Shown in pieces: positions 14,743 through 53,335 of a DNA stretch of 64,000 bases (the first letter of the stretch is position 1; each line of letters starts with the position of its first letter). The position numbers were made by a program, and so were the translations under genes. The stretch lies in IMG/VR virus record IMGVR_UViG_3300029725_000197; one strand, given 5' to 3'. This DNA comes from a virus (lineage: Duplodnaviria > Heunggongvirae > Uroviricota > Caudoviricetes). Under the pieces are notes generated by a model, which did no database searches, was not told the DNA's origin, and saw only the letters and a program-made list of their open reading frames with translations.

Positions 14743-14800
14743 TTGCTATTTGACCGGTTCAGAGTGATATATGTGCTACCGAAAAGAACATCGGGATGCA
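14743..14800 (+). promoter_or_regulatory. promoter cassette copy P8 (TTGCTA-17-…ATAT…accgaaaag leader)
   Basis: Diverged copy of the repeated cassette, upstream of 14835. Confidence 0.4.
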
Positions 14801-14834
14801 CAAAAACAGAAGAAAACGAAAGGGGCAATGAATT

Positions 14835-15911
14835 ATGTTGAAATTTGAATTGAACATAGCCGACCGTAAGACACTTGCAAATCGCATGGAGGAGCTGACG
14901 GGCATCCATCCTTACTACACCAGAGCACCGCTGTATGCTTATGACATCGGCAACTACACCATCGACCGGGACGGTAATCTTCTGGTAGAGCCGGAAAATG
15001 CAGATGCCGAGCTGCTGACGACCCTGCTGAATGAGGGGTTGATCCGCGGCGGCGAGAGCATTGAGAGCACGGATGACCAGCCGGAGGACGCAGAGCCGAC
15101 CGAGAATTTGGCAGATGAGTCTGTGGCCGAAGAGGAGCCGGATGGTGCAACAGAGGATGAGCCAGATGCAGAGGAATCGGAAAGCGAAGAGCAGCCGGAA
15201 GCAGAAGAGCAGCCGGAGGAAGTTCCGCTGGATCTGGAACTTGCTTTTCCCACCAGCCAGCATAACGGCGTGAGCCTTCGCAATCTGGTCAACCTCATCT
15301 ACAGCCGGGGCCGACTCATCAGCAAGGCAACGGGCGGGCACTTTCATGTGGAAACTGACCTGGTCGAAACACTGCGGGATGACAGTTGCACCTACACGGT
15401 GGCAAACTTCATCGAGGCGCTTAAAAGTTACGAAGCACAGTGCGGAACTGCGATGGAAGGTCTGGTGATCACAGAAGAAAAGGTTTCCTCCACAGGATTC
15501 CCGACGGCTTCCGACTATGATCATCTGACGGCTTTCGGTCACCTTGCCATTCTGATGAACCAGCAGGCGATCAGCCAGAAGCGCATCCAGGCAAAGGATG
15601 TCAACGATGAGAATGAGAAGTATGCACTCCGCACATGGCTCCTGCGGCTTGGGATGAACGGTCCGGATTTCAAAGAGACCCGCAAGATCCTCATGGAGAA
15701 TCTTTCCGGCCATGCGGCTTTCCGGACGGATGAGGAAGCACAGAAGTTCCTTGCAAGGGAAAAGGCAAAACGGGATGCCCTGAAAGCCGCGAAACAGGCG
15801 GCACAGAACAGCAATCCTGCCACTGGGGAAACGGCCGCACAGGATGCAGCCCAGCCGACACAGCCCGACTGTGGGGCGAATACGGCGCAGATGCTGGAGG
15901 CGGGAGCGTAA
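14835..15911 (+). CDS. diverged amidoligase (Amidoligase_2/GS-like) paralog with ~70-aa poly-acidic insert
   Basis: Aligns by eye to 16144-17082: 'FELNIADRKTLANRMEELTG'~'VEIEMNNITREKAARKVAEYFG', 'NLVNLIY'~'NLVNIMA', 'GGHFHVE'~'GCGVHIHIG'. Shares the C-terminal motif KYA[LM]R.W[LM]LRLG…AA[FW]R. Large D/E-rich insert at aa 75-135. Confidence 0.55.
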   Translation: MLKFELNIADRKTLANRMEELTGIHPYYTRAPLYAYDIGNYTIDRDGNLLVEPENADAELLTTLLNEGLIRGGESIESTDDQPEDAEPTENLADESVAEEEPDGATEDEPDAEESESEEQPEAEEQPEEVPLDLELAFPTSQHNGVSLRNLVNLIYSRGRLISKATGGHFHVETDLVETLRDDSCTYTVANFIEALKSYEAQCGTAMEGLVITEEKVSSTGFPTASDYDHLTAFGHLAILMNQQAISQKRIQAKDVNDENEKYALRTWLLRLGMNGPDFKETRKILMENLSGHAAFRTDEEAQKFLAREKAKRDALKAAKQAAQNSNPATGETAAQDAAQPTQPDCGANTAQMLEAGA

Positions 15912-16067
15912 GCTCCCAAGCCCCCAATGGGGGCCGGAAAATAAGTGAGACCCTCTTCAATTGTACCGATATTAACTCTGAAAATGTACATTATCAAGCA
16001 GATAAACCGCAGAAATGTACACGATCATTCTGCCTCATATTTGTCGAATATATGTTCTTTTATATCC

Positions 16068-16130
16068 TTGCTATTATCCGCACCTGACGGTAATATGCAC
16101 ATACCGAAAGGGAAAACAAGGAAAAAACAA
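16068..16130 (+). promoter_or_regulatory. promoter cassette copy P7 (TTGCTA-17-TAATAT gcacataccgaaaggg)
   Basis: -35/-10 elements with 17-nt spacing and the conserved leader, upstream of the amidoligase gene. Confidence 0.5.
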
Positions 16131-16143
16131 AGGAGAACATACC

Positions 16144-17082
16144 ATGAACGATAAAACAAGAGAGCAGATTGAAGCCATGAAAAACCAGACCATCGGAGTT
16201 GAGATCGAGATGAACAACATCACCAGAGAAAAAGCGGCAAGAAAGGTTGCCGAGTACTTCGGAACCAGAGCATGGAACGCCGCCAGCGAGTACGGATATT
16301 ACAGCTGGGCTTGCAAGGATGGACAGGGCAGGGTTTGGAAATTCCAGAGGGATGTGAGCATCTACGGACCGGACGCAGAAAAATGCGAACTGGTCACCCC
16401 GATCCTCACCTACGACGACATCGAATCCCTGCAGGAAATCATCCGGCTGCTCCGCAAGGCAGGCGCAAAGAGCAGTCCAAGCCGCGGATGCGGGGTCCAC
16501 ATCCACATCGGCAAAGGCGACCACACCGCAAAGACCATCCGCAACCTTGTGAACATCATGGCGGCACACGAACAGCAGATCGGCAGAGCCATCCGGATCG
16601 ACGCAGGGCGTACCGGACAATATTGCCGGGTAGTCGAGCACCGCTTCCTCGACCGGCTGAACCGCGAGAAGCCGACCACCATGCGCAAGCTGGAAGACAT
16701 CTGGTACGAAGGCAACGGTTCCAGCTGGGAAAACCGGAATGCCCACTACAATTCAAGCCGGTACCATATGCTGAACCTCCATGCCACCTTTACAAAAGGA
16801 ACCATTGAATTCCGCCTTTTCCAATTCGCAGACCCAGCGGACGGAAAGCGTAACGGACTGCATGCCGGTGAGATGAAAGCCTACATCCAGCTTTGCCTCG
16901 CAATGAGCCAGCTTGCCAAGATGGTCAGAACGGCAAGCCCGAAGCCTCAGCAGACCGACAACGACAAATACGCAATGCGGTGCTGGATGCTCCGGCTGGG
17001 ATTCATTGGTGAGGAGTTCGCAACGGCAAGGGAAATCCTTCTGCGGAATATGGAGGGCAACGCAGCATGGCGCAACAAATAA
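16144..17082 (+). CDS. putative amidoligase (carboxylate-amine ligase, Pfam Amidoligase_2-like)
   Basis: 'IGVEIEMN', 'GCGVHIHIG' and 'GTIEFRLFQ' motifs typical of the phage amidoligase family. 312 aa. Confidence 0.65.
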   Translation: MNDKTREQIEAMKNQTIGVEIEMNNITREKAARKVAEYFGTRAWNAASEYGYYSWACKDGQGRVWKFQRDVSIYGPDAEKCELVTPILTYDDIESLQEIIRLLRKAGAKSSPSRGCGVHIHIGKGDHTAKTIRNLVNIMAAHEQQIGRAIRIDAGRTGQYCRVVEHRFLDRLNREKPTTMRKLEDIWYEGNGSSWENRNAHYNSSRYHMLNLHATFTKGTIEFRLFQFADPADGKRNGLHAGEMKAYIQLCLAMSQLAKMVRTASPKPQQTDNDKYAMRCWMLRLGFIGEEFATAREILLRNMEGNAAWRNK

Positions 17083-17150
17083 GCGCCAGCTGTACGGGCA
17101 CCTTTTGGGCGGGCAACCGCCCTTGAGGTGGTAGAAGGAGGTGCAGGTTT

Positions 17151-17387
17151 ATGAAAAGCACGTTAAAAAATGAAAGCACACCGGGCGGCAGGACCTTTAA
17201 GGTGACCATCACCGAGACCTACCAGAGAACGGTGACCATTTATGAATCCGAAATGAAAGAGCCGACCGTGCAGGAAGCCCAGCGAGTGGCAGAGGACTGG
17301 TGGCAGGACAGCCAGATTGAGCTTGGGACAGATGATTTCCAGGGCGTGGAATTCACTGGCAGGGAGGACGGTGAGGCGGATGTTTGA
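17151..17387 (+). CDS. small acidic hypothetical protein
   Basis: RBS GAAGGAGGTG before ATG 17151. 78 aa, between the amidoligase and GGCT genes. Confidence 0.5.
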   Translation: MKSTLKNESTPGGRTFKVTITETYQRTVTIYESEMKEPTVQEAQRVAEDWWQDSQIELGTDDFQGVEFTGREDGEADV

Positions 17388-17901
17388 ATTGATCAGCCGA
17401 AGCCCATCCAGATATTATCTTGCCTACGGAAGCAACCTCGACATGGAGCGGATGGGAAAGAGATGCCCCTATGCTGTGGTGGTCGGCACGACCGAGATCA
17501 AGGGCTACCGGCTTCTGTTCAAAAAGAGCAAGACCGGCTGCTATGCCACCATTGAGCAGGACGCCAATGAAAGCGTACCGGCAGTGGTCTGGAAGCTCTC
17601 GGAATATGATGAGCTCCTGCTGGACCGGTACGAGGGCTGCCCAAGATACTACTACAAGAAACAGTTTCAGCTTCCGGTCTGGAACCTGAACGGGAACCGC
17701 ATGAAAAAGGCAAAGCCCTGCATCGCTTATGTGATGCACGAGGACCGGCGGCTTGGCTGCCCGGATGCCGAGTATTTTGAACTGCTGCGCGGCGGATACA
17801 GCGACTGGGAATTTCCGCTGGACACACTGAAGCGTGGACTGGCAGCTAGTATCGGAAGGGCGGAAGCCATCCGGTATCTGAAGAAGCAGCAGATGATGTA
17901 A
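17380..17901 (+). CDS. gamma-glutamyl cyclotransferase-like (AIG2/GGCT fold) protein 1
   Basis: 'YYLAYGSNL' N-terminal motif and 'VVW…YEG.P..Y' pattern. ATG 17380 overlaps the upstream stop. Confidence 0.65.
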   Translation: MFELISRSPSRYYLAYGSNLDMERMGKRCPYAVVVGTTEIKGYRLLFKKSKTGCYATIEQDANESVPAVVWKLSEYDELLLDRYEGCPRYYYKKQFQLPVWNLNGNRMKKAKPCIAYVMHEDRRLGCPDAEYFELLRGGYSDWEFPLDTLKRGLAASIGRAEAIRYLKKQQMM

Positions 17902-18031
17902 GAGTACACGATCAAAAGCAAAAAACATTGTGCAGTATATGATGCTCATCGGCCTTGATAAATCAGGGCAGAAGAGTGATATATACCATACCGCCAGACA
18001 AGAGCGGAGAAAACCGAAGGGAGAGATTCAA

Positions 18032-18511
18032 ATGAAGAACAAGAAATATTACATCGCCTACGGCAGCAACCTGTCGGTGGAGCAGATGGCATACCGGTGT
18101 CCGGATGCAAAAATTGCAGGGCAGGCGGTGCTGGCAGGCTGGGAGCTTTTGTTCCGGGGCTGCGCCACCATCGCACCGAACCCGAAGAAGAACACGCCGG
18201 TTCTGGTGTGGGAGATTTCGGAAAGGGACGAAGGAAACCTCGACCTCTATGAGGGCTACCCGAATTACTACCGCAAGGAAGACCTGAACATCGAACTGCT
18301 CCGGGAAGGGGCAGAACCGGAGATGGTGACCGCAATGGTATATATCATGGAGAACGACTTCGGACGCCGCGCACCGAGCCGGTATTACTACAAAGTTCTG
18401 CATGACGGCTATAAGGCATTCCGCTTCCCGATGCACATCCTCGAAGGTGCGCTGAAGGAATGCATGGATAAGGATGCCGCCCAGCGGATGATCGAGGAGG
18501 TGCAGGCATGA
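18032..18511 (+). CDS. gamma-glutamyl cyclotransferase-like (AIG2/GGCT fold) protein 2
   Basis: 'YYIAYGSNL…LVWEISE…LDLYEGYPNYY' is paralogous to 17380-17901. Confidence 0.65.
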   Translation: MKNKKYYIAYGSNLSVEQMAYRCPDAKIAGQAVLAGWELLFRGCATIAPNPKKNTPVLVWEISERDEGNLDLYEGYPNYYRKEDLNIELLREGAEPEMVTAMVYIMENDFGRRAPSRYYYKVLHDGYKAFRFPMHILEGALKECMDKDAAQRMIEEVQA

Positions 18512-18975
18512 ATTTCGCAGATCAGAAAATGGTCAGGAAGTTGAGAAAAGAGTTCCCGGTCGGATGCCGGATCGTCCTCGATGAGATGGATGACAAGCAG
18601 GCACCGCCCATCGGAACGCAGGGAACCTGCAACGGGGTCGATGATGCCGGAAACATCTTGGTGAGCTGGGACACCGGAAGCCATCTGAACGTTGCCTACG
18701 GCGCGGACAGTTGCCACCGTGTGGCTTCGGAAGCCGAGGTCAAGGTGTCGCTCGACCGCCTTGGTAAAACGCGACAGACCGGCCCACGTTGCCCCAGGTG
18801 CGGAGCAAAGCCTGACTGTTACGACCATCAGCAGCAGGCACTCAGCCGAAGGGCGGACATCCAGATCTGCAACCGCTGCGGAACGGAGGAAGCATTAGAG
18901 GACATTGCATGGGGCGGACAGCAGAAGATGCATCTTGCAGACTGGGCAATCGTGAAAGGAGGCTGGGTCGAATGA
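18508..18975 (+). CDS. DUF4314-like domain + C-terminal zinc-ribbon protein
   Basis: 'VGCRIVLDEMDDKQAPPIGTQGTCNGVDDAGNILVSWDTGSHL' resembles DUF4314 (from memory). C-terminal CPRCG…CNRCG. Confidence 0.4.
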   Translation: MNFADQKMVRKLRKEFPVGCRIVLDEMDDKQAPPIGTQGTCNGVDDAGNILVSWDTGSHLNVAYGADSCHRVASEAEVKVSLDRLGKTRQTGPRCPRCGAKPDCYDHQQQALSRRADIQICNRCGTEEALEDIAWGGQQKMHLADWAIVKGGWVE

Positions 18976-19343
18976 AGGTTCTTCTGATCAAACCGATGGA
19001 GCATCCGCAGGTGGTGGACATTGAAAACTCCCTGAAAGAGTTCTACCGCATCCTCGACTGCGACTGCATCACAGCCACCTACCCGTGGGAAGAACGCGCC
19101 GTCCTGGTCACCGATGACAACGGGCTGTTCACCGAGAAGTCATTCAGCAGATACGTTCCGGAGCTGGAGCAGCCCATCAAGGGAAACTTCTTCATCTGCG
19201 GATTGGGCGAGGAAGATTTCGCAGAGCTGCCCCAGGACCTCATCCAGAAATTCAGGGAACGCTTCTGGGTGCCGGAGGCATTCGTCAGCATGTTCGGGCA
19301 GATGGCAGTCATCCAGATGGATGACGGAACGAAGCCGGAATAA
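18972..19343 (+). CDS. DUF3846-like protein
   Basis: 'MKVLLIKPMEHPQVVDIENSLKEFYRIL…NFFICGLGEEDFAEL' fits the DUF3846 pattern (from memory). Start overlaps the upstream stop. Confidence 0.45.
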   Translation: MKVLLIKPMEHPQVVDIENSLKEFYRILDCDCITATYPWEERAVLVTDDNGLFTEKSFSRYVPELEQPIKGNFFICGLGEEDFAELPQDLIQKFRERFWVPEAFVSMFGQMAVIQMDDGTKPE

Positions 19344-19414
19344 GATACCACAATCAGAAAAATACCCTCTCGGCCAGAAAAGACCGGGAGGGCTTGGTTT
19401 AACAGGAGGAGCCT

Positions 19415-19606
19415 ATGGGACACAGGAAGATGCCGGCTTATGGCGAGAGGGAACACGGCGGCAGATACATTCTGGATGAATACGAATGGTCGAGAAATCA
19501 CGGCAAGGCGGTGACCATCCGCAGATGGAAAAGAGACCTGAAAAAGAAAGCCAGGGCGCATAACCGCAGGGTGATGCATCAGGCAATGCAGGGCGAAGCC
19601 GATTAG
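19415..19606 (+). CDS. small basic hypothetical protein
   Basis: RBS AGGAGGAG before ATG 19415. 63 aa. Confidence 0.4.
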   Translation: MGHRKMPAYGEREHGGRYILDEYEWSRNHGKAVTIRRWKRDLKKKARAHNRRVMHQAMQGEAD

Positions 19607-19805
19607 ACGGAAAATGGGGGCCTCAAAAGAATGAGAACCCCCTTCCAGTTTACTGTATATTACCTCTGGAAAGCAACGATAGCAAGAAGAACCGCCGCCA
19701 TAATGTACACAAACATCTGGCAGCGGTTTTGTGTATCATACCAAATCAAAACGGGGGATACGAGGCAGAACCCCAGCTTCTGCTGGGGGAGCCTTTTGGG
19801 ATTCC

Positions 19806-20057
19806 TTAGAAGAAATCCCTCATGCTCATGCCGACCTCGTTCAGTCGTTCTTCCATGCTGTGGTAGTGCCAATCTTCTTCCTCTTCTTCGTCCTCTTCCT
19901 CAAGCTCTTCTGGGAAGGGGTCGTGCCGCCATCCGGCTTTCTGGTATTCTTCTTCCCGGATGTCGTTGCGGTCGTAAATGTCCAGCTCGTATTCTTCTTC
20001 AAGCTCTGCGATGCGGTTTTCGATTGCGGTTTCAACTTCTGTAATGGTCTTTTTCAT
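19806..20057 (-). CDS. small acidic protein (E-rich) on the minus strand
   Basis: On the reverse strand, RBS GGAGG before ATG (20057). 'EELEEEDEEEEEDWHYH'. Driven by the divergent cassette copy P9. Confidence 0.5.
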   Translation of the reverse strand: MKKTITEVETAIENRIAELEEEYELDIYDRNDIREEEYQKAGWRHDPFPEELEEEDEEEEEDWHYHSMEERLNEVGMSMRDFF

Positions 20058-20099
20058 GGTTTTTGTCCTCCGTTTTTGGTTTGGTTTTCTTTGCTTTCG

Positions 20100-20136
20100 T
20101 TGTGTGTATAATGCCGCAGAAACACATATATAGCAA
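20100..20136 (-). promoter_or_regulatory. promoter cassette copy P9 (minus strand; TTGCTA-17-CATTAT)
   Basis: Reverse-complement cassette, divergent from P1. Confidence 0.4.
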
Positions 20137-20206
20137 GTCAATCAGGGGTTATATATGTACCAAACATGAGGGGCAAAGAACGTTGATAATATGACGTTTT
20201 ATGGCC

Positions 20207-20255
20207 TTGCTATCACAGGGCGGTGACGGTAATATACAGCTACAAAAAGCAAAGG
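20207..20255 (+). promoter_or_regulatory. promoter cassette copy P1 (TTGCTA-17-TAATAT acagctac)
   Basis: 'ggccTTGCTAtcacagggcggtgacggTAATATacag'. Confidence 0.5.
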
Positions 20256-20266
20256 AGGACAGCAAA

Positions 20267-20443
20267 ATGGCTGATTGGAGAACATGGAAAAAAGGGAGAA
20301 AGACAACATGGCACTGGAACGAATTCGATGGAAGCGGAAGCCGGGAAGGAATCATCACCGAGGTTCATGAAGACCATGCGATTATGGAAGCAGACGGCAT
20401 GCACCTTTGGATCGACGATGACACGGCAGAGATGTTCAGCTAA
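20267..20443 (+). CDS. small acidic hypothetical protein (58 aa)
   Basis: RBS AAGGAGG before ATG 20267. Confidence 0.45.
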   Translation: MADWRTWKKGRKTTWHWNEFDGSGSREGIITEVHEDHAIMEADGMHLWIDDDTAEMFS

Positions 20444-20523
20444 GAAAACGGGGAGGGAAACCTCCCCGGATAAACACATAAATCCTCCAGATCAGGGGGC
20501 AGATGATCGTGTACTTTAGCCGC

Positions 20524-20575
20524 TTGATAGTATCCGGCAGTGACGGTAATATACAGCTACCAAAACGAAAGGGGC
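20524..20575 (+). promoter_or_regulatory. promoter cassette copy P2 (TTGATA-17-TAATAT)
   Basis: 'gccgcTTGATAgtatccggcagtgacggTAATATacagctaccaaaacgaaaggggcaaag'. Confidence 0.55.
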
Positions 20576-20582
20576 AAAGAAC

Positions 20583-20789
20583 ATGGAACGCTACACTTAT
20601 GAGATCACCTTTACACGGCTGGATGGACAGCAGGATGAAATCCAGCAGCACACCAGCGAGGAGCTGGCAAGAGAATGCTTCCGGCTTTTCGATGAGCCGG
20701 ACAGCGCAGAGATGTACAGCAAAATTGAACTTAGCCGCCATGACTGGGAGACAGGCATGGATGAGATTCTGGAAACGATGACATTTTGA
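20583..20789 (+). CDS. small acidic hypothetical protein (68 aa)
   Basis: ATG directly after the conserved leader. Confidence 0.45.
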   Translation: MERYTYEITFTRLDGQQDEIQQHTSEELARECFRLFDEPDSAEMYSKIELSRHDWETGMDEILETMTF

Positions 20790-20804
20790 GAGGAGAACAA
20801 AAAC

Positions 20805-21065
20805 ATGACCTACACAAAAATCAACCTTTATCTTGCAAACGGAATTCCAGAGGCACTCAGCAACCTCTGGTACGGAAGCGACAGTGCGGTGGTCGAGATC
20901 AGGGATGCCGTTGAGGATGCGAAGAACGGCAAGGACCTTCTGAACCGTATCCAGAAGATGAAGCTCCTTCGGAAATTCACCCTCGACAGGGAGAACGACA
21001 AGCGCATCCGCTTCAAGGGAACGGACTGCTGGGGCAACGTAAGCTACCTCGAAATCATCCGCTAA
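20805..21065 (+). CDS. hypothetical protein (86 aa)
   Basis: RBS GAGGAG before ATG 20805. Co-transcribed with 20583. Confidence 0.45.
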   Translation: MTYTKINLYLANGIPEALSNLWYGSDSAVVEIRDAVEDAKNGKDLLNRIQKMKLLRKFTLDRENDKRIRFKGTDCWGNVSYLEIIR

Positions 21066-21084
21066 AGGCAAGACCGACAGGCGC

Positions 21085-21116
21085 AAGGGGCTGGAAATGA
21101 CCAGCCTTTTGCTCGT
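21085..21116 (+). terminator. terminator (GGCTGG aaatga CCAGCC TTTTGCTCG)
   Basis: Perfect 6-bp stem plus T-run. Confidence 0.5.
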
Positions 21117-21193
21117 GTCTGTCTTCCGAAAGCTGGCATGAAAAGCACATAAATATGACAATTACAGGATTGAATGATCGTGTAGTTTAGCCG

Positions 21194-21245
21194 CTTGATA
21201 GTGTTTCGAGGTGACGGTAATATACAGTCACCGAAAGGGGAAAAC
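21194..21245 (+). promoter_or_regulatory. promoter cassette copy P3 (TTGATA-17-TAATAT inside GGTGAC…GTCACC palindrome)
   Basis: 'gccgcTTGATAgtgtttcgagGTGACggTAATATacaGTCACCgaaagggg'. Confidence 0.6.
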
Positions 21246-21267
21246 AACAAAAACGGAGGATACGACA

Positions 21268-21738
21268 ATGACGAAGAACGAAGACCGCATCAATAAACTT
21301 TTCAAGGAACTGGTACCGGATACGGGCAAGGCAGACAGCCTCGCAGGGGAGCTGGTAAGGGCAATGAGCCGCATCGGATACTGCTTTTACAACGACGGCG
21401 ACCAGCTGGGCATCGGCTACGGCAGGGAAACCTGCAACCCTGCAGGGCGGTTCCTTGGAGCCAAGGGCAACGACAAAATCGCAAAGCTGACTGCAGATGC
21501 CTGGGCAGTCTACAGTGAGGAAGCCTACGAAAAGGTTCTGGACATCCTTTGCGGAGCGGTTGCCGACTATGTTGAGCAGAACCCAGACCTTAGAAACCAG
21601 CCGACCGAAGATATGTGGGACTTCAAGGATGAGGAAGAAGACCAGGATGACAGCTGGGATGAAGAGGAAGATGACTGGGGCGAAGAGGAAGATGACTGGG
21701 GCGAAGAGGAAGATTACGAGGACGAAGAAGACTACTAA
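21268..21738 (+). CDS. hypothetical protein with poly-acidic D/E-W repeat tail (…DEEEDQDDSWDEEEDDWGEEEDDWGEEEDYEDEEDY)
   Basis: RBS 'aaacggagga' before ATG 21268. 157 aa. Confidence 0.55.
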   Translation: MTKNEDRINKLFKELVPDTGKADSLAGELVRAMSRIGYCFYNDGDQLGIGYGRETCNPAGRFLGAKGNDKIAKLTADAWAVYSEEAYEKVLDILCGAVADYVEQNPDLRNQPTEDMWDFKDEEEDQDDSWDEEEDDWGEEEDDWGEEEDYEDEEDY

Positions 21739-21751
21739 GCCAGAGAAACAC

Positions 21752-21786
21752 ATGGGGCTTGCCGGTAACGGCAGCCCTTTTCTTCT
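21752..21786 (+). terminator. terminator (GGGCTTGCCG gtaa CGGCAGCCC TTTTCTTCT)
   Basis: Stem-loop plus T-run. Confidence 0.45.
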
Positions 21787-21835
21787 GCTGTAATACGCAC
21801 AGTTCCGGGCGGCTATCTTTGTGTAGTATAGCCGC

Positions 21836-21890
21836 TTGATAGTGTGTGACATAGACGGTAATATGCACATACCGAAACGGAAAACCAAGA
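21836..21890 (+). promoter_or_regulatory. promoter cassette copy P4 (TTGATA-17-TAATAT gcacataccgaaacgg)
   Basis: Conserved -35, spacing, -10 and leader. Confidence 0.55.
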
Positions 21891-21908
21891 AAAACGGAGG
21901 AAACCACC

Positions 21909-22100
21909 ATGAAGAAGAACATCACCAAGGAAGAGGGAAAAGCCCTGCTGGAGATCGCCAAGCGCCTGATGGTAGCGGTAGACAGCCGGGGAGATCTCGA
22001 AGCCCGCGACAATGACAGCGAAGATTTCATTGAGGTTCCGGTCTGGGGCATCCAGAAAGCAATGGAGGAAGCCTACCTGCTGGGACGGATGAACAGATAA
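21909..22100 (+). CDS. small acidic hypothetical protein (63 aa)
   Basis: RBS 'aacggagga' before ATG 21909. Confidence 0.45.
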   Translation: MKKNITKEEGKALLEIAKRLMVAVDSRGDLEARDNDSEDFIEVPVWGIQKAMEEAYLLGRMNR

Positions 22101-22229
22101 ACCGACAGCCCCCCGACACAGCCCCACACAGGGGCTTGTGCCACGGGTGGCAAAACGATCCGAATGAAGCGACAACGCCCCACACAGGGGAAGATGTGGC
22201 GGCGTGGATGCCCCAGGAAGGAAAAGCAC

Positions 22230-22445
22230 ATGGAAGAACGGATGATGGATACCATCGTGGAAATCTACAACCATATGGATGACAGCGATAAGGATGCCTT
22301 CACACTGGAGGATGCCGAGGATATGGTGGAAGACCAGATCAGGATGGACAAGGAAGCTGGACGGGAACCGCTGGCATATGACCCGCAGTTCTTCTACGAT
22401 ACCATTGTAGACCTCATGGAGCAGGATGCCGAAGATGCAGAGTAA
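22230..22445 (+). CDS. small acidic hypothetical protein (71 aa)
   Basis: RBS 'aggaaggaaaag' before ATG 22230. No cassette of its own. Confidence 0.4.
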   Translation: MEERMMDTIVEIYNHMDDSDKDAFTLEDAEDMVEDQIRMDKEAGREPLAYDPQFFYDTIVDLMEQDAEDAE

Positions 22446-22494
22446 TGTACATTCTGCCCGGTATTCTGGGAAGATGATCGTGTAGTATAGCCGC

Positions 22495-22560
22495 TTGATA
22501 GTGTGCCGAAGTGACGGTAATATACAGTCACCGAAAGGGGCAAAGCCCAAGGAAAACAAA
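22495..22560 (+). promoter_or_regulatory. promoter cassette copy P5 (TTGATA-17-TAATAT, GTGAC…GTCAC palindrome)
   Basis: 'gccgcTTGATAgtgtgccgaaGTGACggTAATATacaGTCACcgaaaggggcaaag'. Confidence 0.6.
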
Positions 22561-22579
22561 ACACACGGAGGATACGAAC

Positions 22580-22864
22580 ATGAAAAAGAATTTGATCGAC
22601 TTTCCAGAAAACAACATCAGCATTGAGAGTTTCTACGACCGGCTCAGACCTTGCTACGACAGCATCATGCAGTTCGGTGACCGGGTTTTGGTTGCCCAGA
22701 TGAACTGGAACGGCATGCTGGAGGGAGCGGTATACGGATTTGTGGAAGACCCAGAGGAAGGCTGGTCACCGATTGAGTGCCGACTGGAGCTTCTGAAGAT
22801 TTCCGATGAGACCTACACGGATGCCGGTCACGCGATCGAGTGGTGCATCAAGAACGCACACTGA
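22580..22864 (+). CDS. hypothetical protein (94 aa)
   Basis: RBS 'cacggagga' before ATG 22580. Confidence 0.45.
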   Translation: MKKNLIDFPENNISIESFYDRLRPCYDSIMQFGDRVLVAQMNWNGMLEGAVYGFVEDPEEGWSPIECRLELLKISDETYTDAGHAIEWCIKNAH

Positions 22865-22869
22865 AAAAG

Positions 22870-22906
22870 GGCAGAGCTCCTTCGGGGGCTTTTGCTCGTA
22901 GTGGCG
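22870..22906 (+). terminator. terminator (AGCTCC ttcg GGGGCT TTTGCTCG), UUCG loop
   Basis: Stem-loop plus T-run. Same TTTTGCTCG tail as the hairpin at 21085. Confidence 0.5.
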
Positions 22907-22976
22907 GATTCTTCCAGTGTGGAAATACACATAAATCCGACAAAAAGAGGTGTGTATGATCGTGCAGCATAGCCGC

Positions 22977-23045
22977 TTGCTATGTCCGGGCAGTGACGGT
23001 AATATACAGTCACAACGAAGGGAAAAGCCCTACGGAAAACAAAAC
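22977..23045 (+). promoter_or_regulatory. promoter cassette copy P6 (TTGCTA-17-TAATAT, GTGAC…GTCAC)
   Basis: 'gccgcTTGCTAtgtccgggcaGTGACggTAATATacaGTCACaacgaagggaaaag'. Confidence 0.55.
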
Positions 23046-23063
23046 ACACGGAGGATACAGACC

Positions 23064-23441
23064 ATGACGAACAAAGCAAAAACCTACCTTAAGAACATTC
23101 AGGAAGCCGACACCGAGAAGAAGCTGATCGGCATCGAGATCGCCTTCAAGCAGGACATGGCCCTCAGCTGCAACGACCTCGGAAGCCTTTGCAGGGCGGC
23201 AGAGGACAGGCGGTACAGCCTGCGGAACAACGAGGAGACGCTGAAGCTGAAGCAGATCCTTTTCTTCCGGACGAAAGCGGAGATGGATGCCTACCACGAT
23301 ATGAGCCGCAAGCCGGAAGACTGGACGGCAGAGGAGATCGAGCAGCAGAGAAGCCGCTTCTGCAGCGTCTGGCAGGTCATCGAGGAAGCGGAGCTGGTCG
23401 ATGAATACGAGGCTTGGAAGGAAGCCAACCCCAACGCCTAA
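23064..23441 (+). CDS. hypothetical protein (125 aa)
   Basis: RBS 'cacggagga' before ATG 23064. Confidence 0.45.
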   Translation: MTNKAKTYLKNIQEADTEKKLIGIEIAFKQDMALSCNDLGSLCRAAEDRRYSLRNNEETLKLKQILFFRTKAEMDAYHDMSRKPEDWTAEEIEQQRSRFCSVWQVIEEAELVDEYEAWKEANPNA

Positions 23442-23632
23442 CAGCACCCGAAAGGTACACGCCCCGAAAAGGGGCTGTGCCTCGTATCCGATGTGTTTTA
23501 TATAAAGTTGCCGAAATGGGAAACTATTTGTTAGTTATACAGAAAAGTTTCCTGCTTAGGAAAATGCTATTACAAGGACTTCTTTGGAGGTCCTTTTTCT
23601 TTACCCATTTTTGCAGAAAGGAGGAGATGCCA

Positions 23633-24112
23633 ATGGCTACCAGAGGCAGAAAACCAAAGCCGACCGCCATGAAGGAACTGGAAGGTAATCCGGGCAAGCA
23701 TCCGCTGAACACCAGCGAACCGAAGCCCAATAAGAAAGCACCGGCCTGTCCGAAGTGGCTGGAGCCGGAAGCAAAGAAAGAGTGGCGTAGACTTGCCAAA
23801 CAGATGGAAGCCATCGGCATCCTGACCGAAGTGGACATGGCGGCCTTTGCCGGTTACTGTCAGGCGTATGCCCGATGGAAGGAGGCAGAGGAGTTCATCA
23901 CCCAGCATGGCACTATCGTCAAGACCCCGTCCGGGTACTGGCAGCAGGTGCCGCAGGTGTCCATCGCCCAGACCTATCTGAAGATCATGAACAAGTTTGC
24001 AGAGCAGTTCGGTCTGACCCCGTCCTCCCGAAGCCGGATCATTGCTTCGGACGGCGGTCCTGCGGATGCAGCTGATGAGATGGAGAATCTGCTGGGAGGA
24101 GGTGGAAGCTGA
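23633..24112 (+). CDS. terS: terminase small subunit (P27 family)
   Basis: 'GRKPKPTAMKELEGNPGKHPLN…EFGLTPSSRSRI' is the P27-family signature. RBS AAAGGAGGA upstream. Confidence 0.8.
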   Translation: MATRGRKPKPTAMKELEGNPGKHPLNTSEPKPNKKAPACPKWLEPEAKKEWRRLAKQMEAIGILTEVDMAAFAGYCQAYARWKEAEEFITQHGTIVKTPSGYWQQVPQVSIAQTYLKIMNKFAEQFGLTPSSRSRIIASDGGPADAADEMENLLGGGGS

Positions 24113-44063: not shown

Positions 44064-44083
44064 GGCTGACAGAAAGGGGTAAT

Positions 44084-47544: not shown

Positions 47545-47554
47545 GGGGGGGGGG
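47545..47554. repeat. homopolymeric G10 tract in the fibre1-fibre2 intergenic region
   Basis: 'attcGGGGGGGGGGtatcgg', 63 nt upstream of ATG 47617. Confidence 0.6.
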
Positions 47555-47616
47555 TATCGGATTATCTGACCTGTGCAGTAATCTGATCTCTTCTGTGCTG
47601 AGGGGAGGTGTGTTCT

Positions 47617-49980: not shown

Positions 49981-50083
49981 TCAAATCCCACGGCTTGTCC
50001 GTGTTTTTATATATAATCCATATCAAAGGGCAGCTTCGGCTGTCTATTTTTATTGCCCGGATACGGGCGGAAAGGACGGAATT

Positions 50084-50506: not shown

Positions 50507-50560
50507 TCAACCGGGAGGGGCGATAAGCCTCTCCCACATTTTATTTAGGAGGAACGGACC

Positions 50561-51268
50561 ATGAGTATGAAAGAATATCCCGCAAAGCTGACGACCGGCT
50601 ACTACCGTGTGCGTGAGGACTGGGAGGATGAAGCATCCCAGCTTGGCGCATACCGTCTGCTGGCGAATGCAAAAGCCAAGTGCGATGAGAATCCCGGCAG
50701 CCGTGTATTTGATAATGACGGCAATGTGATCTACCCGGAGGAGGCTGTGCCGGTGACAGGTGCAGAAGAAGCGGAGGAAAAGCCGGTTATGGACGAGCCG
50801 GAAGGGAAAGCACCGGAAGAGGAACCTTCGGAAGAGAAGGACACCCCTGTGACGGATGAGCAGAAAGCGGAACCCGGAAAGGAAGAGTATCCGACTGCAG
50901 AGGAACTCCCGGCAGCGATCGCCTATGGCAAGCTCAAGACTCTTATGAATATCCGGGAAATGCCGGATACCAGTGCAGAGGTTGTGGCTATCTATAAGAA
51001 GAATACGCTGATCGAGATCGTGGAGTTCTGCGCCGGCTGGCTGAAGATCAAATGCCAGGAAGCGGCGAGCGGTCTGGCCTATGTTCTCAACAGTGCGGAT
51101 ACCTATGCCTTTACCGCCAGCAAGATCTACACCGTTGTTCCGGGTGACAACCTCTGGAAGATTGCAGAGAAGGAACTTGGGGATGGAAGCCGTTGTGCCG
51201 ATATCCGCGCACTGAACGGTCTGACTTCCAATGCCATCCGGGTCGGTATGAAGCTGCTGATCCCGTAA
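50561..51268 (+). CDS. cell-wall-binding protein (N-terminal domain shared with the endolysin C-terminus, SH3b-like, C-terminal LysM)
   Basis: 'YTVVPGDNLWKIAEKELGDGSRCADIRALNGL…VGMKLLIP' is LysM. 'GYYRVREDWEDEASQLGAY' is paralogous to 'GWYRVRKSWQNAASQKGAF' at the endolysin C-terminus. Confidence 0.55.
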   Translation: MSMKEYPAKLTTGYYRVREDWEDEASQLGAYRLLANAKAKCDENPGSRVFDNDGNVIYPEEAVPVTGAEEAEEKPVMDEPEGKAPEEEPSEEKDTPVTDEQKAEPGKEEYPTAEELPAAIAYGKLKTLMNIREMPDTSAEVVAIYKKNTLIEIVEFCAGWLKIKCQEAASGLAYVLNSADTYAFTASKIYTVVPGDNLWKIAEKELGDGSRCADIRALNGLTSNAIRVGMKLLIP

Positions 51269-51343
51269 ACGGTGCATTTCGACGCTTTTTTAGGACTTCA
51301 ATTCCCAACAGCATAACTGTATACTAGGGCTGAGGTGATGAAA

Positions 51344-51646
51344 ATGAACGAAGTGCTCATGGCAGAAGATGTGTTAAGACCGTATGGCATCACATTGTAC
51401 TACAAGGGCTGCGAATATCTGAGGGATGCAATCATCCTGCACTGGCATCAGCCGGACCTGATACCAGGTCAGCTCATACAGCTTGTTGCAAATCAAAAAG
51501 GGGCTAAGAAGAGTAGTGTCCTCGGCACCATTTCTACGATCGCAAACGTAGCGTGGAAAGTCAATGGGACAGGCGGCGAAAAACCGATGTCTGCCATGAA
51601 GTTCGTCTGTAGGATGCTAGAAGAAGCGGATGGGATTATAAAATAA
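51344..51646 (+). CDS. Spo0A C-terminal-domain-like DNA-binding protein
   Basis: 'TISTIANVAWKVNGTGGEKPMSAMKFVCRMLEEA' resembles the Spo0A_C recognition region (from memory). Promoter-like TTCAAT-18-TATACT upstream. Confidence 0.35.
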   Translation: MNEVLMAEDVLRPYGITLYYKGCEYLRDAIILHWHQPDLIPGQLIQLVANQKGAKKSSVLGTISTIANVAWKVNGTGGEKPMSAMKFVCRMLEEADGIIK

Positions 51647-51662
51647 CAAAATAACCACAGCA

Positions 51663-51698
51663 CGAGACTCGGAGTGATCCGGGTCTCGATTTTTTTAG
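51663..51698 (+). terminator. terminator (CGAGACTCGG agtgat CCGGGTCTCG ATTTTTTT)
   Basis: 10-bp stem with one G·U plus T7. Confidence 0.6.
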
Positions 51699-51709
51699 GA
51701 GGAATCGAT

Positions 51710-53182
51710 ATGGGATACACCAATAGTCCACTCGTTGTTTACACCAAACTCTCCCCGAACCATTCCGGGCAGAGAACACACAGCATTGACCGCATCACGC
51801 CGCATTGCGTGGTAGGCCAGCTTTCTGCAGAGAGCATTTGCGGATGTTTTACCAGTCCGACCCGTCAGGCCAGCTGCAACTATGGCATTGGCACGGACGG
51901 CCGTGTTTCTCTGTGCGTGGAGGAGAAGAACCGCAGTTGGTGCTCGTCCAGCAATTCCAATGACCAGAGAGCAGTCACCATCGAATGTGCCAGCGACATG
52001 AATGAGCCGTATGCGATGAACAGCGCCGTATATAACTCGCTCGTTAAGCTCTGCATCGATATCTGCAAACGTAACGGCAAGAAGAAGCTCCTGTGGCTGG
52101 GCGACAAGAATAAAACCCTCAACTACGCTCCGGCAGCAGATGAGATGATCCTGACTGTTCATCGCTGGTTTGCCAACAAAAGCTGTCCCGGAAACTGGCT
52201 GTATGCCCGTCTGGGTGATCTGGCCGCAAGGGTGACGGCGGCACTGGGCGGTTCAGCTCCATCCTGCCTGCAGGCATCTTTCCTTAAGAACCTGTCAGAA
52301 GCAGAGGCAGTGGCAAAGATCGGCCCGCTGTTTACAGAAAACCAGAAGCAGTCCGGCATCCTCGCCTGCGTGTCGATGGCGCAGTTTATTCTGGAGTCCG
52401 GCTATGGTAAGTCTGAGCTGGCACAGAATGCAAATAACTGCTTTGGCATGAAGACCTCTCTTTCCGGGAACAGCTGGAGTGGCAGCAGTTGGGATGGCAA
52501 GTCGGTCTATACCAAGAAAACGCAGGAGCAGAATGCCGATGGCAGCTATGTCACGATCACCGTTGATTTCCGAAAGTACGCCTGTGTGGAGGACTCCATT
52601 GCCGACCACGCGGCATATCTGCTTGGTGCGATGAATGGCAGCAGGAAACGTTATGAAGGTCTGGCTGGATGCATGGACTACAAGAAGGCTGTGCAGATCA
52701 TCAAGGACGGCGGATATGCCACCAGCCACACCTATGTGCAGAATCTCTGCAATATCATCGAACGCTGGAACCTGACACAGTATAATGCCGTAGCCCAGAA
52801 CCAGGGAGGTAACATCTCTGGCTGGTATCGTGTGCGTAAGAGCTGGCAGAATGCAGCTTCCCAGAAAGGGGCGTTCCATGATCTGTCCTATGCGAAGCAG
52901 TGCGCGGATGCGAATCCGGGGTATACGGTCTTTGATCCGGTCGGCAAGGCGGTCTATCCTGTGAACCAGACTGCATCTGTGCCGTATGCGGTTCGAGTGT
53001 CCATCAATGACCTCAACATCCGTAAAGGACCAGGCACAAACTACGGCAAGACCGGTTATTACACCGGAAGGGGCGTGTTCACCATCGTGGCAGAATCTGC
53101 TGGTGCTGGTTCTGTGAAAGGCTGGGGCAAGCTGAAATCCGGTGCAGGTTGGATCGCACTTGACTTCGCAGCACGTATCTGA
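51710..53182 (+). CDS. endolysin: N-acetylmuramoyl-L-alanine amidase (Amidase_2) + glucosaminidase domain + SH3-like wall-binding domains
   Basis: RBS AGGAGGA before ATG 51710. 'ITPHCVVGQ…TIECASDMNE' is Amidase_2/PGRP. 'ILACVSMAQFILESGYGKSELAQNANNCFGMK' is the glucosaminidase (FlgJ-like) domain. C-terminal SH3-like repeats. Confidence 0.8.
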   Translation: MGYTNSPLVVYTKLSPNHSGQRTHSIDRITPHCVVGQLSAESICGCFTSPTRQASCNYGIGTDGRVSLCVEEKNRSWCSSSNSNDQRAVTIECASDMNEPYAMNSAVYNSLVKLCIDICKRNGKKKLLWLGDKNKTLNYAPAADEMILTVHRWFANKSCPGNWLYARLGDLAARVTAALGGSAPSCLQASFLKNLSEAEAVAKIGPLFTENQKQSGILACVSMAQFILESGYGKSELAQNANNCFGMKTSLSGNSWSGSSWDGKSVYTKKTQEQNADGSYVTITVDFRKYACVEDSIADHAAYLLGAMNGSRKRYEGLAGCMDYKKAVQIIKDGGYATSHTYVQNLCNIIERWNLTQYNAVAQNQGGNISGWYRVRKSWQNAASQKGAFHDLSYAKQCADANPGYTVFDPVGKAVYPVNQTASVPYAVRVSINDLNIRKGPGTNYGKTGYYTGRGVFTIVAESAGAGSVKGWGKLKSGAGWIALDFAARI

Positions 53183-53190
53183 CCTTCATG

Positions 53191-53217
53191 GGCTTTCCTG
53201 AAAAGGAGAGCCTTTTA
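53191..53217 (+). terminator. terminator (GGCTTTCC tgaaaa GGAGAGCC TTTTAC)
   Basis: Hairpin plus T-run after the endolysin. Confidence 0.45.
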
Positions 53218-53288
53218 CATACAACGCAATCGTCAGTTCTGCCCGATTATATGGGCAGATATTCTACGATTTATAGTTCGGATATCAC

Positions 53289-53335
53289 TTGCTATAAGTG
53301 CCGGATAGAGCAAATATGTCACTACCCGAAGATAG
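53289..53335 (+). promoter_or_regulatory. promoter cassette copy P10 (TTGCTA-17-AAATAT gtcactacccgaag) upstream of recombinase genes
   Basis: Diverged copy. Followed by the perfect 8-bp hairpin TTTTCCTT-tcgg-AAGGAAAA at 53361-53380. Confidence 0.4.

Follow-up and report, generated by a model that had tools for sequence, protein, structure and literature searches.

T4-like myoviruses carry regulatory cassettes termed PeSL, for promoter-early stem-loop (Arbiol et al. 2010, PMC2839356; Comeau et al. 2014, PMC4122927). They are composites of about 100 bp that combine a strong promoter of the sigma-70 type with a conserved upstream region, a Shine-Dalgarno motif and an adjacent stem-loop (PMC2839356, PMC4122927), and many copies of them occur in a hyperplastic region, immediately 5′ of small ORFans. 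Related phages differ by indels, replacements and re-orderings that are associated with the cassettes, with crossovers spread over the stretch between the upstream region and the ribosome-binding site. Of the known systems, PeSL is the closest to the cassettes described here, which have all of these properties, the promoter being a predicted one. The two nevertheless differ in host context, since the cassettes here belong to a siphovirus-like temperate prophage with an integrase, from Gram-positive gut Clostridia, whereas PeSL belongs to lytic T4-type myoviruses of Gram-negatives, and there is no sequence homology between them. The stem-loop, which in PeSL lies inside or overlaps the hexamers, is here a separate terminator upstream of the promoter. 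Unlike PeSL, one copy here precedes, and would drive, the integrase operon, and its relatives occur in non-phage recombinase modules.

A second parallel is offered by morons, which have reportedly been described in lambdoid and HK97-like phages. They are discussed in PMC2839356. Like morons, the units here consist of an accessory gene with its own promoter and terminator, which sits between core modules and is present in some relatives but not in others. Classical morons, however, are not known to share a flanking sequence, while here every unit bears the same cassette, providing a homology-based route for exchange.

Individual parts of the cassette also have precedents. The alpha subunit of RNA polymerase docks on UP elements at about -42 and -52, and both these elements and extended -10 (TRTGn) promoters are reportedly found in Bacillota. 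STAB-SD is said to act as a 5′ mRNA stabilizer of Bacillus cryIIIA. The stoperators of cluster A mycobacteriophages (e.g. L5) are 13-bp repressor sites, not promoters.

A repeated cassette in the prophage

The window, a stretch of 64 000 nucleotides, carries a real repeat. When as many as two mismatches are allowed, TTGMTA-N15-GGTAATAT matches 12 times, against 0.31 expected from shuffles, and all 12 matches are confined to 14.6–23.0 kb or position 53289. The ten sites listed by a sequence-only reading were all recovered. Seven strong plus-strand copies (-35 at 16068, 20207, 20524, 21195, 21836, 22495 and 22977) give E values of 1e-15 to 1e-22 with a family profile built from relatives. A second, broader profile, made with the window sequences left out, identifies the listed copies at 53289 (E 3.8e-5) and 20131(-) (E 2e-4 at 20136(-)) as diverged family members. 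With this profile the copy at 14743 gives an E of only 0.38, and its membership is marginal, the main support coming from conserved orthologues and intermediate forms in other phages. Three further copies are at 19685(-) (E 7e-7), 15997(-) (E 4e-6) and 17955(+) (E 0.25). In all, the prophage holds about 13 copies of a putative module of terminator, strong promoter and ribosome-binding leader, positioned before accessory genes and before the integrase genes. The copies and their cargo are as follows.

14743–14771, plus strand: P1, diverged 'class B' copy, TTGCTA-17-GATATA, AGAGT box
14835–15911: P1 cargo, 358-aa amidoligase-associated gene (PHROG match)
15969–15997, minus strand: orphan copy, TTGATA-17-TAATAT, long-spacing upstream box
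16040–16146, plus strand: P2 cassette, -35 16068–16073, -10 16091–16096, leader, ATG 16144 (E 1e-17)
16144–19606: P2 operon, Amidoligase_2, DpnD/PcfM, GGACT, GGACT, DUF4314, DUF3846 and a 63-aa ORF
17955–17983, plus strand: internal class-B copy, TTGATA-17-GATATA, AGAGT box
19657–19685, minus strand: orphan copy, TTGCTA-17-TAATAT
20108–20136, minus strand: P3m, TTGCTA-17-CATTAT, 'acacacaac' leader
20057–19809, minus strand: P3m cargo, acidic 83-aa gene
20181–20269, plus strand: P4 cassette, -35 20207, -10 20230–20235, with a 58-aa ORF at 20267–20443 (E 1.6e-15)
20449–20585, plus strand: P5 with stem-loop 20449–20468, -35 20524, -10 20547–20552 (E 2.8e-22)
20583–21065: P5 cargo, 68-aa and 86-aa ORFs
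21086–21270, plus strand: P6 with terminator 21086–21109, -35 21195, -10 21218–21223, perfect inverted repeat 21211–21231
21268–21738: P6 cargo, 156-aa acidic protein
21754–21911, plus strand: P7 with terminator ~21754–21784, -35 21836, -10 21859–21864, without inverted repeat
21909–22100 and 22230–22445: P7 cargo, DUF6900 gene and 71-aa ORF
22468–22582, plus strand: P8 cassette, -35 22495, -10 22518–22523, perfect inverted repeat 22511–22531
22580–22864: P8 cargo, Nmad4 gene
22868–23066, plus strand: P9 with terminator ~22868–22896, -35 22977, -10 23000–23005, perfect inverted repeat 22993–23013
23064–23441: P9 cargo, 125-aa ORF
53190–53405, plus strand: P10 with terminator 53190–53216, class B, TTGCTA-17-AAATAT, -35 53289
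53403–57709: P10 cargo, two tandem large serine recombinases (leader 85 nt)

The exact 17-nt spacer noted earlier holds in every copy. TAATAT as the -10 element is right for the seven strong copies, 15997(-) and 19685(-), but not for the remaining four, which have GATATA (14743 and 17955), CATTAT (20136(-)) or AAATAT (53289). Identity above 85% over 75 bp is limited to one pair (21195 versus 22495, 88%), other pairs reaching 48–77%. The copies lie 23–64 nt 5′ of the start codons of ORFs that have a Shine-Dalgarno site, in agreement with the promoter/leader reading, although what they would drive is transcription units (about 10, with about 19 genes) and not every gene, as had been proposed.

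P1 orthologues with intact hexamers are present in many relatives, and the internal copy at 17955, 5′ of the second GGACT gene (ATG 18032), is kept in more than 15. The two minus-strand orphans have no cargo, a point against the expression-module reading: 15997(-) stands back-to-back with P2, the two -35 elements being 71 bp apart, and points toward a hairpin (15920–15934) and the 3′ end of the gene at 14835–15911, while 19685(-) is convergent with the amidoligase operon and runs directly into a hairpin at 19616–19642 (-17.3 kcal/mol, z -2.55). P3m, whose leader is similar to a variant in locus L024, and P4 form a divergent pair (71 bp). The 125-aa ORF behind P9 has its own terminator (23574–23595), followed by terS (23633).

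Predicted promoter anatomy

An alignment of 230 unique family copies shows next to no variation in the -35, the -10, the 17-nt distance between them, A34/C35 (predicted +1/+2) or A40, while the spacer interior is free to vary. The conserved A at the predicted +1 lies seven bases 3′ of the -10. When the 5 nt preceding the -10 were left unspecified in the scan, GACGG accounted for 66% of copies, TATGG for 17%, AGAGT for 8%, CATGG for 4% and TGCGG for 2%; because these boxes are mixed, the G at -14 (254/257 copies) is the sole universal position there. Among profile-retrieved copies, a set that favours the seed pattern, GACGG occurs in 228–230 of 230. TATGG corresponds to the classical TRTGn extended -10, so that some members are canonical TATGg-TAATAT promoters, but unlike in TRTG promoters the commonest box here is GACGG, whose conservation seems to go far beyond what sigma-A contact alone would account for. 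With TTGMTA, 17 nt, TAATAT and the G at -14, each copy looks like a sigma-A-type promoter of the host.

An upstream box, (ATGATC)GTGTA(C/G)-WTTA, is found in 120 of 226 copies, against 6 after shuffling, at either of two spacings that differ by one helical turn (4–6 nt, n=40; 14–17 nt, n=49). Relative to the predicted start, its A/T part comes to lie near -42 or -52, which is consistent with an UP-like role, but the box, with its GTGTAC core and GCCGC linker, is unlike UP elements in not being A/T-rich overall, and the GTGTAC part could equally be a transcription factor binding site.

Leaders and stem-loops

An ORF of at least 35 aa, preceded by a Shine-Dalgarno site and starting 23–64 nt after the -10, follows 398 of 412 copies. 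The leaders are purine-rich and predicted to be unstructured, and Rfam has no match for them. They open with GAAAGGGG, which resembles a Shine-Dalgarno site, and often a second ribosome-binding site, ACGGAGGA, comes between it and the ATG; the long P8 leader has two Shine-Dalgarno motifs. As in STAB-SD, GAAAGGGG is ~6–13 nt away from the predicted 5′ end, and initiation in long-leader copies does not use it. In the short-leader P5 and P1, unlike STAB-SD, it is the actual ribosome-binding site, 8 nt from the ATG, so the tandem arrangement may be a mere by-product of the cargo's own site. Most copies have a stem-loop just upstream, which would end the preceding unit; in the window, stem-loops or terminators lie 5′ of P5, P6, P7, P9 and P10.

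Inverted repeat and search for a regulator

The perfect GTGAC-N11-GTCAC repeat reported earlier is present in exactly three window copies (21211, 22511 and 22993). It had been interpreted as the operator of a dimeric repressor, and a single dedicated phage regulator acting on this repeat, or on the GACGG or GTGTAC boxes, could switch the island and the recombinases together. Strong conservation outside the hexamers (GACGG, T-18, A-22, T-8/A-7), the helical phase of the upstream box, kept as for activator sites, the centring of the perfect 5–6-bp repeat on the -10 and its recurrence with a different interior in the distant genome L250 all speak for such control, and operator sites repeated many times have a precedent in mycobacteriophage L5, whose stoperators are asymmetric. 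Like stoperators, the cassettes are many copies of a short, oriented, conserved intergenic motif throughout the early region, but the motif here varies within one genome and no cognate repressor was found in the window.

The repeat is not a family feature, however. Five or six of the six arm positions are complementary in only ~27% of 257 unique copies, and the left arm stays the same across all forms of the right arm (GTC, CAT, GCT or GAT), so the arms do not covary. The same cargo bears repeat and non-repeat versions in different phages, and the mixture of pre -10 boxes within single genomes (GACGG, TATGG, CATGG, AGAGT) argues against one shared operator there. Elsewhere in the window the repeat is absent except for one 1-mismatch site inside a methylase gene, and none lies near any HTH gene. 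Pfam, PHROG and NCBIfam scans of the island and early genes gave no candidate regulator; the XRE gene (58810–59151, minus strand) lies beyond the recombinases, adjoins a separate AAA_25 and recombinase module, and no cassette motif lies in its vicinity. Since the hexamers are near consensus, no activator would be needed either. Control by a dedicated regulator is thus unlikely, and a promoter read by the host polymerase, probably constitutively or early, is preferred.

Distribution and link to recombinases

The family is deeply conserved in gut and rumen Clostridia, with more than 700 profile matches in ~275 fetched loci; carriers are isolates and MAGs of Lachnospiraceae and Oscillospiraceae as well as a Ca. 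Heliusvirales phage. As had been suspected for the recombinase operon, a diverged member (53289) precedes the serine-recombinase operon; at least 16 other loci have the same core 5′ of serine recombinases, and the family fronts such genes in unrelated elements too.

One recombinase-linked module (L248) has sigma-70/ECF-like and HTH_38/zinc-ribbon proteins directly upstream, and the zinc-ribbon protein has a homologue in the window (10684–10983) and in many related phage loci. These observations would suit a promoter read by an element-encoded sigma or sigma-like factor in place of host sigma-A. Yet TTGMTA-17-TAATAT (TATAAT in some relatives) is of the classical housekeeping type and unlike ECF sites, no sigma domain was detected among the window ORFs scanned, and the sigma-like protein of L248 has no homologue in the window, which together make such a factor quite improbable.

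Cargo turnover at the cassettes

Comparison of related phages bore out the suggestion that the copies are exchange points for cargo. Fifty-five cargo families were found downstream of the cassette, in more than a dozen array orders that include re-orderings (L024, L051, L079 and L081). Identical -35 plus spacer 17-mers precede unlike cargo (e.g. TTGATAGTATCCGGCAG before E68, T125 and Y86), and upstream boxes and start-site regions are also common to different cargo classes. In L064, homology to the window extends through P7 and its leader as far as the ATG; the cargo that follows has been replaced, and homology returns at the next stop/terminator. Two results speak against exchange through cassette homology. 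A clean deletion of E68 (L065, L050 and L054) used 2–3 nt of microhomology between two ribosome-binding regions and not cassette-cassette homology, and a crude test among close relatives gave no sign of within-genome homogenization (paralogue identity 0.53 within versus 0.53 between genomes).

The direct-orientation clustering of copies, the three large serine recombinases encoded in the window and the linkage of the core motif to recombinase genes in many elements could also be expected of functionless residue from a recent tandem duplication, or of recombinase target (att-like or attC-like) sites that are not promoters. This is the least probable of the readings considered: hexamers, 17-nt spacing, +1 A and ribosome-binding sites are fixed while neighbouring positions drift, even across lineages with unalignable cargo and flanks; the copies are correctly oriented and spaced before ORFs; and crossovers are scattered along the cassette, some of them at microhomology in ribosome-binding sites, and not at one fixed crossover dinucleotide, with no conserved imperfect palindrome of att size.

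Proposed role of the cassettes

Overall, the copies are probably self-contained, insulated modules read by a host sigma-A-type polymerase, which double as homology patches for cargo, every unit being bordered by ~100 bp of similar sequence. The preceding unit would be ended by the stem-loop, after which the upstream box would be placed for alpha-subunit docking; the housekeeping polymerase would engage TTGMTA-17-TAATAT with its extended -10-like G at -14 and start at the conserved A. From such insulation it would follow that the small accessory genes and operons of the island, which lies between the methylase and packaging modules, are each transcribed without phage regulators, in the manner of morons, and that the integrase genes are likewise transcribed independently through a diverged copy. 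At the cassette patches, related phages have lost, exchanged and re-arranged cargo, as is described for PeSL.

Cassette copies in the window

The window is a prophage-like element with its genes on the plus strand, and the cassettes, repeated modules of predicted promoter and leader, in most copies with a stem-loop or terminator upstream, lie among the following genes.

Gene modules of the window
Plus strand: DUF932, SNF2 helicase, MazF-like toxin and D5/NrS-1 primase-helicase (6126-8579)
Plus strand: SAM synthetase, HNH endonuclease, ParB-N6 methylase and C5 methylase (12481-14610)
Plus strand, 14.8-23.4 kb: accessory island
Plus strand: P27-type TerS (23633), TerL, structural module with a 1984-aa tape measure, and LysM lysin
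Plus strand, 53403-57709: two tandem large serine recombinases

The first part of the island encodes an amidoligase-associated protein, followed by an operon of Amidoligase_2, DpnD/PcfM, two GGACT proteins, DUF4314 and DUF3846; the rest consists of small ORFs, including DUF6900, Nmad4 and an acidic 156-aa protein, most of them without any family. The 358-aa protein encoded at 14835-15911 ends in ~60 residues (…KYALRTWLLRLGMNGPDFKETRKILMENLSGHAAFRT…) that are similar to the C-terminus of the adjacent Amidoligase_2 protein (16144-17082; …KYAMRCWMLRLGFIGEEFATAREILLRNMEGNAAWRN…), and the two seem to have a common domain outside the Pfam model. A 21-nt tandem repeat at 21644-21727 gives the 156-aa protein its acidic tail of DDWGEEE repeats; this protein could be DNA-mimic-like. 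Elsewhere in the window, a 400-nt non-coding stretch 3′ of the HNH gene (10283-10684) may be a cos region, and 10684-10983 encodes a double zinc-ribbon protein whose homologues accompany phage islands and recombinase modules alike.

A loose pattern, TTGMTA-N15-GGTAATAT with up to two mismatches, has 12 matches in the window against 0.31 expected, all of them inside the island or at 53289, and a repeat finder returned families of five to seven copies, 33-100 nt long, some of which measure 89-100 nt. Together with seven plus-strand copies recovered at E values of 1e-15 to 1e-22 by a profile built from relatives, these counts establish that the repeat is real. A broader non-redundant profile, from which the window was excluded, added the copies at 19685 (minus), 15997 (minus), 53289 (plus) and 20136 (minus) at E values of 7e-7 to 2e-4, and those at 17955 and 14743 (both plus) marginally, at 0.25-0.38. 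The latter two carry an AGAG(T/G/C) box before the -10 instead of GACGG; they have conserved orthologues, and intermediate forms connect both to the main class. All ten copies of the sequence-only reading (P1 to P10 along the window) are counted here, but three more had been missed, so that pattern and profile searches bring the total to 13. Twelve of these fall in the 14.7-23.0 kb stretch that separates the methylase from the terminase module. The identity of more than 85 % over ~75 bp attributed to the best copies holds for the best pair (88 % over 75 nt), while other pairs reach 48-77 %.

Two divergent back-to-back promoter pairs, at 15969-16096 and 20108-20235, have identical geometry, the first bases of their -35 hexamers lying 71 bp apart. 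The minus-strand copies at 15969-15997 and 19657-19685 are orphans without cargo, with intact hexamers, and are kept in relatives; they point into hairpins, antisense to the 3′ ends of amidoligase-associated genes, and may be relics, yield antisense RNA or serve as insulators.

Predicted promoter anatomy across the family

Pattern scans retrieved at least 200 stretches from viral contigs and 103 from genomes; a profile search of these gave at least 706 copies, spread over about 275 loci. Alignment of 230 unique copies shows both hexamers (-35 and -10), their 17-nt spacing and several leader positions to be near invariant, with a spacer interior that is free to vary; an A seven nucleotides 3′ of the -10, the expected +1, is present in 227 of the 230, and the next C is also near invariant. 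In the window, the seven strong copies and those at 15997 (minus) and 19685 (minus) have TTGMTA-17-TAATAT, which agrees in hexamers and spacing with sigma-A/sigma-70 promoters (a -35 near TTGACA and a -10 near TATAAT, with A second and T sixth, 17 ± 1 nt apart), and four weak copies have a poorer -10 (GATATA twice, CATTAT and AAATAT). When the five bases before the -10 were left unspecified in the scan, they read GACGG in 66 % of copies, TATGG in 17 %, AGAGT in 8 %, CATGG in 4 % and TGCGG in 2 %, with the G at -14 as the only universal base of this box; TATGG is a textbook TRTGn extended -10.

An ORF with a Shine-Dalgarno site begins 23-64 nt after the -10 in 398 of 412 copies. The leaders are purine-rich and unstructured, and their motif GAAAGGGG is the ribosome-binding site itself in P5 and P1, while in long leaders it is followed by a second one, ACGGAGGA. 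Stem-loops or terminators stand upstream of P5, P6, P7, P9 and P10, but are missing or weak at P2 and P4, which belong to the divergent pairs. Sequence and comparative evidence thus support the description of these repeats as promoter cassettes, and we infer from it that they act as promoters.

Other functions were considered and rejected. For an RNA element in the leader, Rfam gave no match across 14-24 kb with E values up to 1, and leader folding was no better than that of shuffles, save for a small GGGC-loop-GCCC hairpin in long leaders. As for coding potential, a frame that starts at an ATG in the upstream box runs through some copies but meets in-frame stops in others. The sequence fits neither an ECF-type nor a sporulation-sigma promoter.

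The proposed operator and regulator

The cassettes had also been taken to form a regulon, in which one regulator would act through a GTGAC-N11-GTCAC operator for a dimeric repressor, centred on the -10. Strong conservation outside the hexamers speaks for this, and the left end of the prophage, where a regulator might be encoded, lies beyond the window. The inverted repeat, however, is perfect at only three of the 13 cassettes, with no other perfect instance in the window, and five or six of the six arm positions are complementary in 70 of 257 unique family copies. Its left arm is fixed whatever the type of right arm, and the right arm is variable (GCACATACC in 30 %, ACAGTCAC(A/C) in 29 % and ACAGCTAC(C/A) in 17 %). 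One and the same cargo has different right-arm types in different phages; the pre -10 box, moreover, is heterogeneous inside single genomes. No regulator with a matching site was found in the window. The XRE protein put forward as candidate repressor is encoded by the sole XRE gene (58810-59151, minus strand), which has no motif nearby and lies beyond the recombinases, outside the phage proper, beside a separate AAA_25 and recombinase module. Because the right arm is variable, the boxes are mixed and a regulator with a matching site was not found, the operator and single-regulator idea is not supported by the sequence evidence. Beyond the phage recombinases, at 58810-62269, the XRE-type HTH gene (minus strand), an AAA_25 ATPase gene and the third of the large serine recombinases have the look of an integrated element of their own that abuts on the prophage.

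Upstream boxes

An upstream box, (ATGATC)GTGTA(C/G)WTTA, is located 5′ of the -35 at either of two spacings, 4-6 nt or 14-17 nt, one helical turn apart; relative to the predicted start, its A/T part then falls near -42 or near -52. UP elements are A/T-rich alpha-CTD sites near -42 and/or -52 that stimulate transcription, and Estrem and colleagues reportedly assigned in 1999 a proximal and a distal subsite to about -42 and -52. The aligned copies have conserved A/T positions at -56 to -52 and -44 to -41; the box fits an UP element by position and one-turn phasing only, because it is not A/T-rich overall. Control through GATC and Dam was discarded: GATC is common in the box, yet missing from many variants.

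A second conserved box, CACATAAAT, is present between terminator and promoter at 20475-20484, 21146-21155 and 22927-22936 (P5, P6 and P9), about 40-50 nt upstream of the -35, where distant lineages carry TACACAAT or GTACAAC.

Link to large serine recombinases

The copy noted before the recombinases, P10 at 53289 (plus strand), is supported as a diverged member of the family, and at least 16 loci that are otherwise unrelated have the cassette core (C-TTGMTA-N12-GACGG-TAATAT) directly 5′ of a large serine recombinase gene.

Loci with the core before a large serine recombinase gene
L248, 3837-5466
L009, L095, L203, L213, L214, L216, L224, L230, L245
L256, L267, L270, L276, L284, L294, L302
Window, 53230-53405

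In at least 14 recombinase-linked loci, the core lies within the final codons (…DLIxxxxDGNM*) of a short SHOCT_2/HTH ORF, which is preceded by an HTH_38/zinc-ribbon protein homologous to that at window 10684-10983; in L248 it comes after both the HTH_38/zinc-ribbon protein and a sigma-70-like protein. Scored against the profile of the phage 'long-spacing' upstream boxes, the 45 nt 5′ of the -35 beat all 2000 shuffles in eight of 16 recombinase loci, from which we conclude that the island cassettes and the recombinase promoter are of common ancestry. P10 itself shows this arrangement in non-coding form, the corresponding frame being interrupted by stop codons.

Hosts and distribution

The closest relatives of the island come from isolates of gut Clostridia.

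Island relatives, among the matches listed
Clostridium fessum SNUG30386: 96.8 % identity, the closest
Faecalibacterium intestinale CLA-AA-H281: 95.2 % identity
Blautia faecis DFI.3.66: about 95 % identity

Compared over window 14600-24000 with the loci L293, L291/L208 and L259, the island is 95-97 % identical in isolate genomes of Lachnospiraceae (C. fessum, B. faecis) and Oscillospirales (F. intestinale), and such identity across two orders implies either that transfer was very recent or that the host range is very broad. More distant variants occur in Lawsonibacter, Wujia, Eubacterium, Acetatifactor and Ruminococcus and in MAGs from rumen, chicken, rabbit and termite, and one copy is found in Ruminococcus phage NatCom_3870, classified in Ca. 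Heliusvirales. Single matches in non-Clostridia were discarded as chance, since the genome scan pattern has 17 specified bases and roughly 100 chance matches are expected in 596 Gb. PLSDB gave no match, and a plasmid or conjugative origin was rejected; no earlier account of these cassettes was found in the Heliusvirales paper or in keyword searches of the literature.

Cargo and exchange at the cassettes

At least 55 families of cargo lie downstream of the cassettes, in arrays that vary between related loci in the presence, absence and order of their units, as in L024 (cargo classes, in order, Acid150, F8, W58, F9, F11) and L079 (F19, D6900, F23, F9, Acid150). Promoter sub-segments are mosaic: an identical 17-mer, TTGATAGTATCCGGCAG, precedes the cargo classes E68 (17 instances), T125 (11) and Y86 (2); one of the two alleles of the T125 promoter has the -35 and spacer of E68 within otherwise T125-type flanks; and in L002, E68 is preceded by a three-way chimera. 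In locus L064, homology to the window extends through P7 and its leader up to the start codon and returns at the stop and terminator of the next-but-one unit; the cargo enclosed by these two points is different. Array variants, mosaic promoters and this replacement between leader and terminator all uphold the proposed turnover of genes at cassettes. The sequence-only observation was largely right; of its interpretations, promoter cassettes and cargo turnover are supported by sequence and comparative evidence, and the operator with its single regulator is not supported. Two results sit badly with the simple picture: a clean deletion of E68 went by way of 2-3 nt of microhomology between two ribosome-binding regions, and close relatives gave no homogenisation signal within genomes.

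In distant lineages, cassette 'flavours' are particular to the lineage and common to all copies of a genome. Homogenisation is not claimed, because a crude ungapped test within genomes of close relatives gave no signal of it; our claim is limited to patchy exchange and lineage-specific flavours in distant lineages, short of concerted evolution. PADLOC gave no matches for the cargo, PDB had no relatives of the acidic 156-aa and the 125-aa proteins, and the extra cargo families match DUFs only.

Comparison with known systems

Integron cassettes are promoterless and bounded by imperfect-palindrome attC sites, with a tyrosine integrase and adjoining attI and Pc; this model was rejected, as each unit here has its own predicted promoter, attC-like palindromes are lacking and the recombinases are of the serine type. 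The units fit the definition of morons in having their own predicted promoter and terminator between core genes and in being variably present in relatives, but add a common flanking cassette.

Among described systems, the PeSL cassette of T4-like phages comes closest. It joins a strong sigma-70-like promoter to a stem-loop over ~100 bp of conserved sequence, recurs 5′ of ORFans within hyperplastic regions, and mediates both indels and mini-circles (PMC2839356, PMC4122927). Likewise, the present cassettes are repeated composites of 89-100 nt, in which a predicted strong sigma-70-like promoter adjoins a stem-loop, and crowd a plastic region 5′ of small ORFs that mostly have no family or only a DUF. 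They also appear to bound indels and replacements between relatives, the E68 deletion apart, and exist in chimeric copies, as the array, mosaic and L064 cases illustrate. Unlike PeSLs, however, they have neither an origin in T4-like lytic myoviruses nor homology to T4 early promoters, the window being an integrase-bearing prophage of Clostridia whose TerS is P27-type and whose tape measure is long; the cassette is therefore an analogue of PeSLs rather than a member. It differs further in having no homology to PeSLs, in host and phage type, in its terminator, which is a separate upstream element, and in its link to integrase operons.

A tentative joint reading, which we consider possible but rather doubtful, is that the cassette would be a portable expression-and-exchange module of mobile elements of gut Clostridia. 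It would have originated as the promoter of large-serine-recombinase operons, overlapping the 3′ end of the SHOCT_2/HTH gene, of which the island 'upstream box' would be a non-coding fossil. Later amplification in phage accessory islands would have made it a PeSL-like gene-capture platform, working by cassette-to-cassette recombination, possibly through mini-circles, and carrying small genes, possibly for anti-defence, from phage to phage across two bacterial orders.

If the promoter activity is true, PeSL-type 'regulatory cassette shuffling', so far described only in lytic T4-like phages of Gram-negatives, would reach temperate phages of the dominant human-gut Clostridia and provide a concrete mechanism for accessory-gene turnover in a very widespread phage group. 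On the same condition, a compact natural promoter-leader unit, near unchanged in Lachnospiraceae and Faecalibacterium isolates, would be an attractive expression part where genetic tools are few. Subject to that condition too, the cassettes would flag at least 55 small, mostly unknown cargo families as candidates for functions in host take-over or anti-defence.
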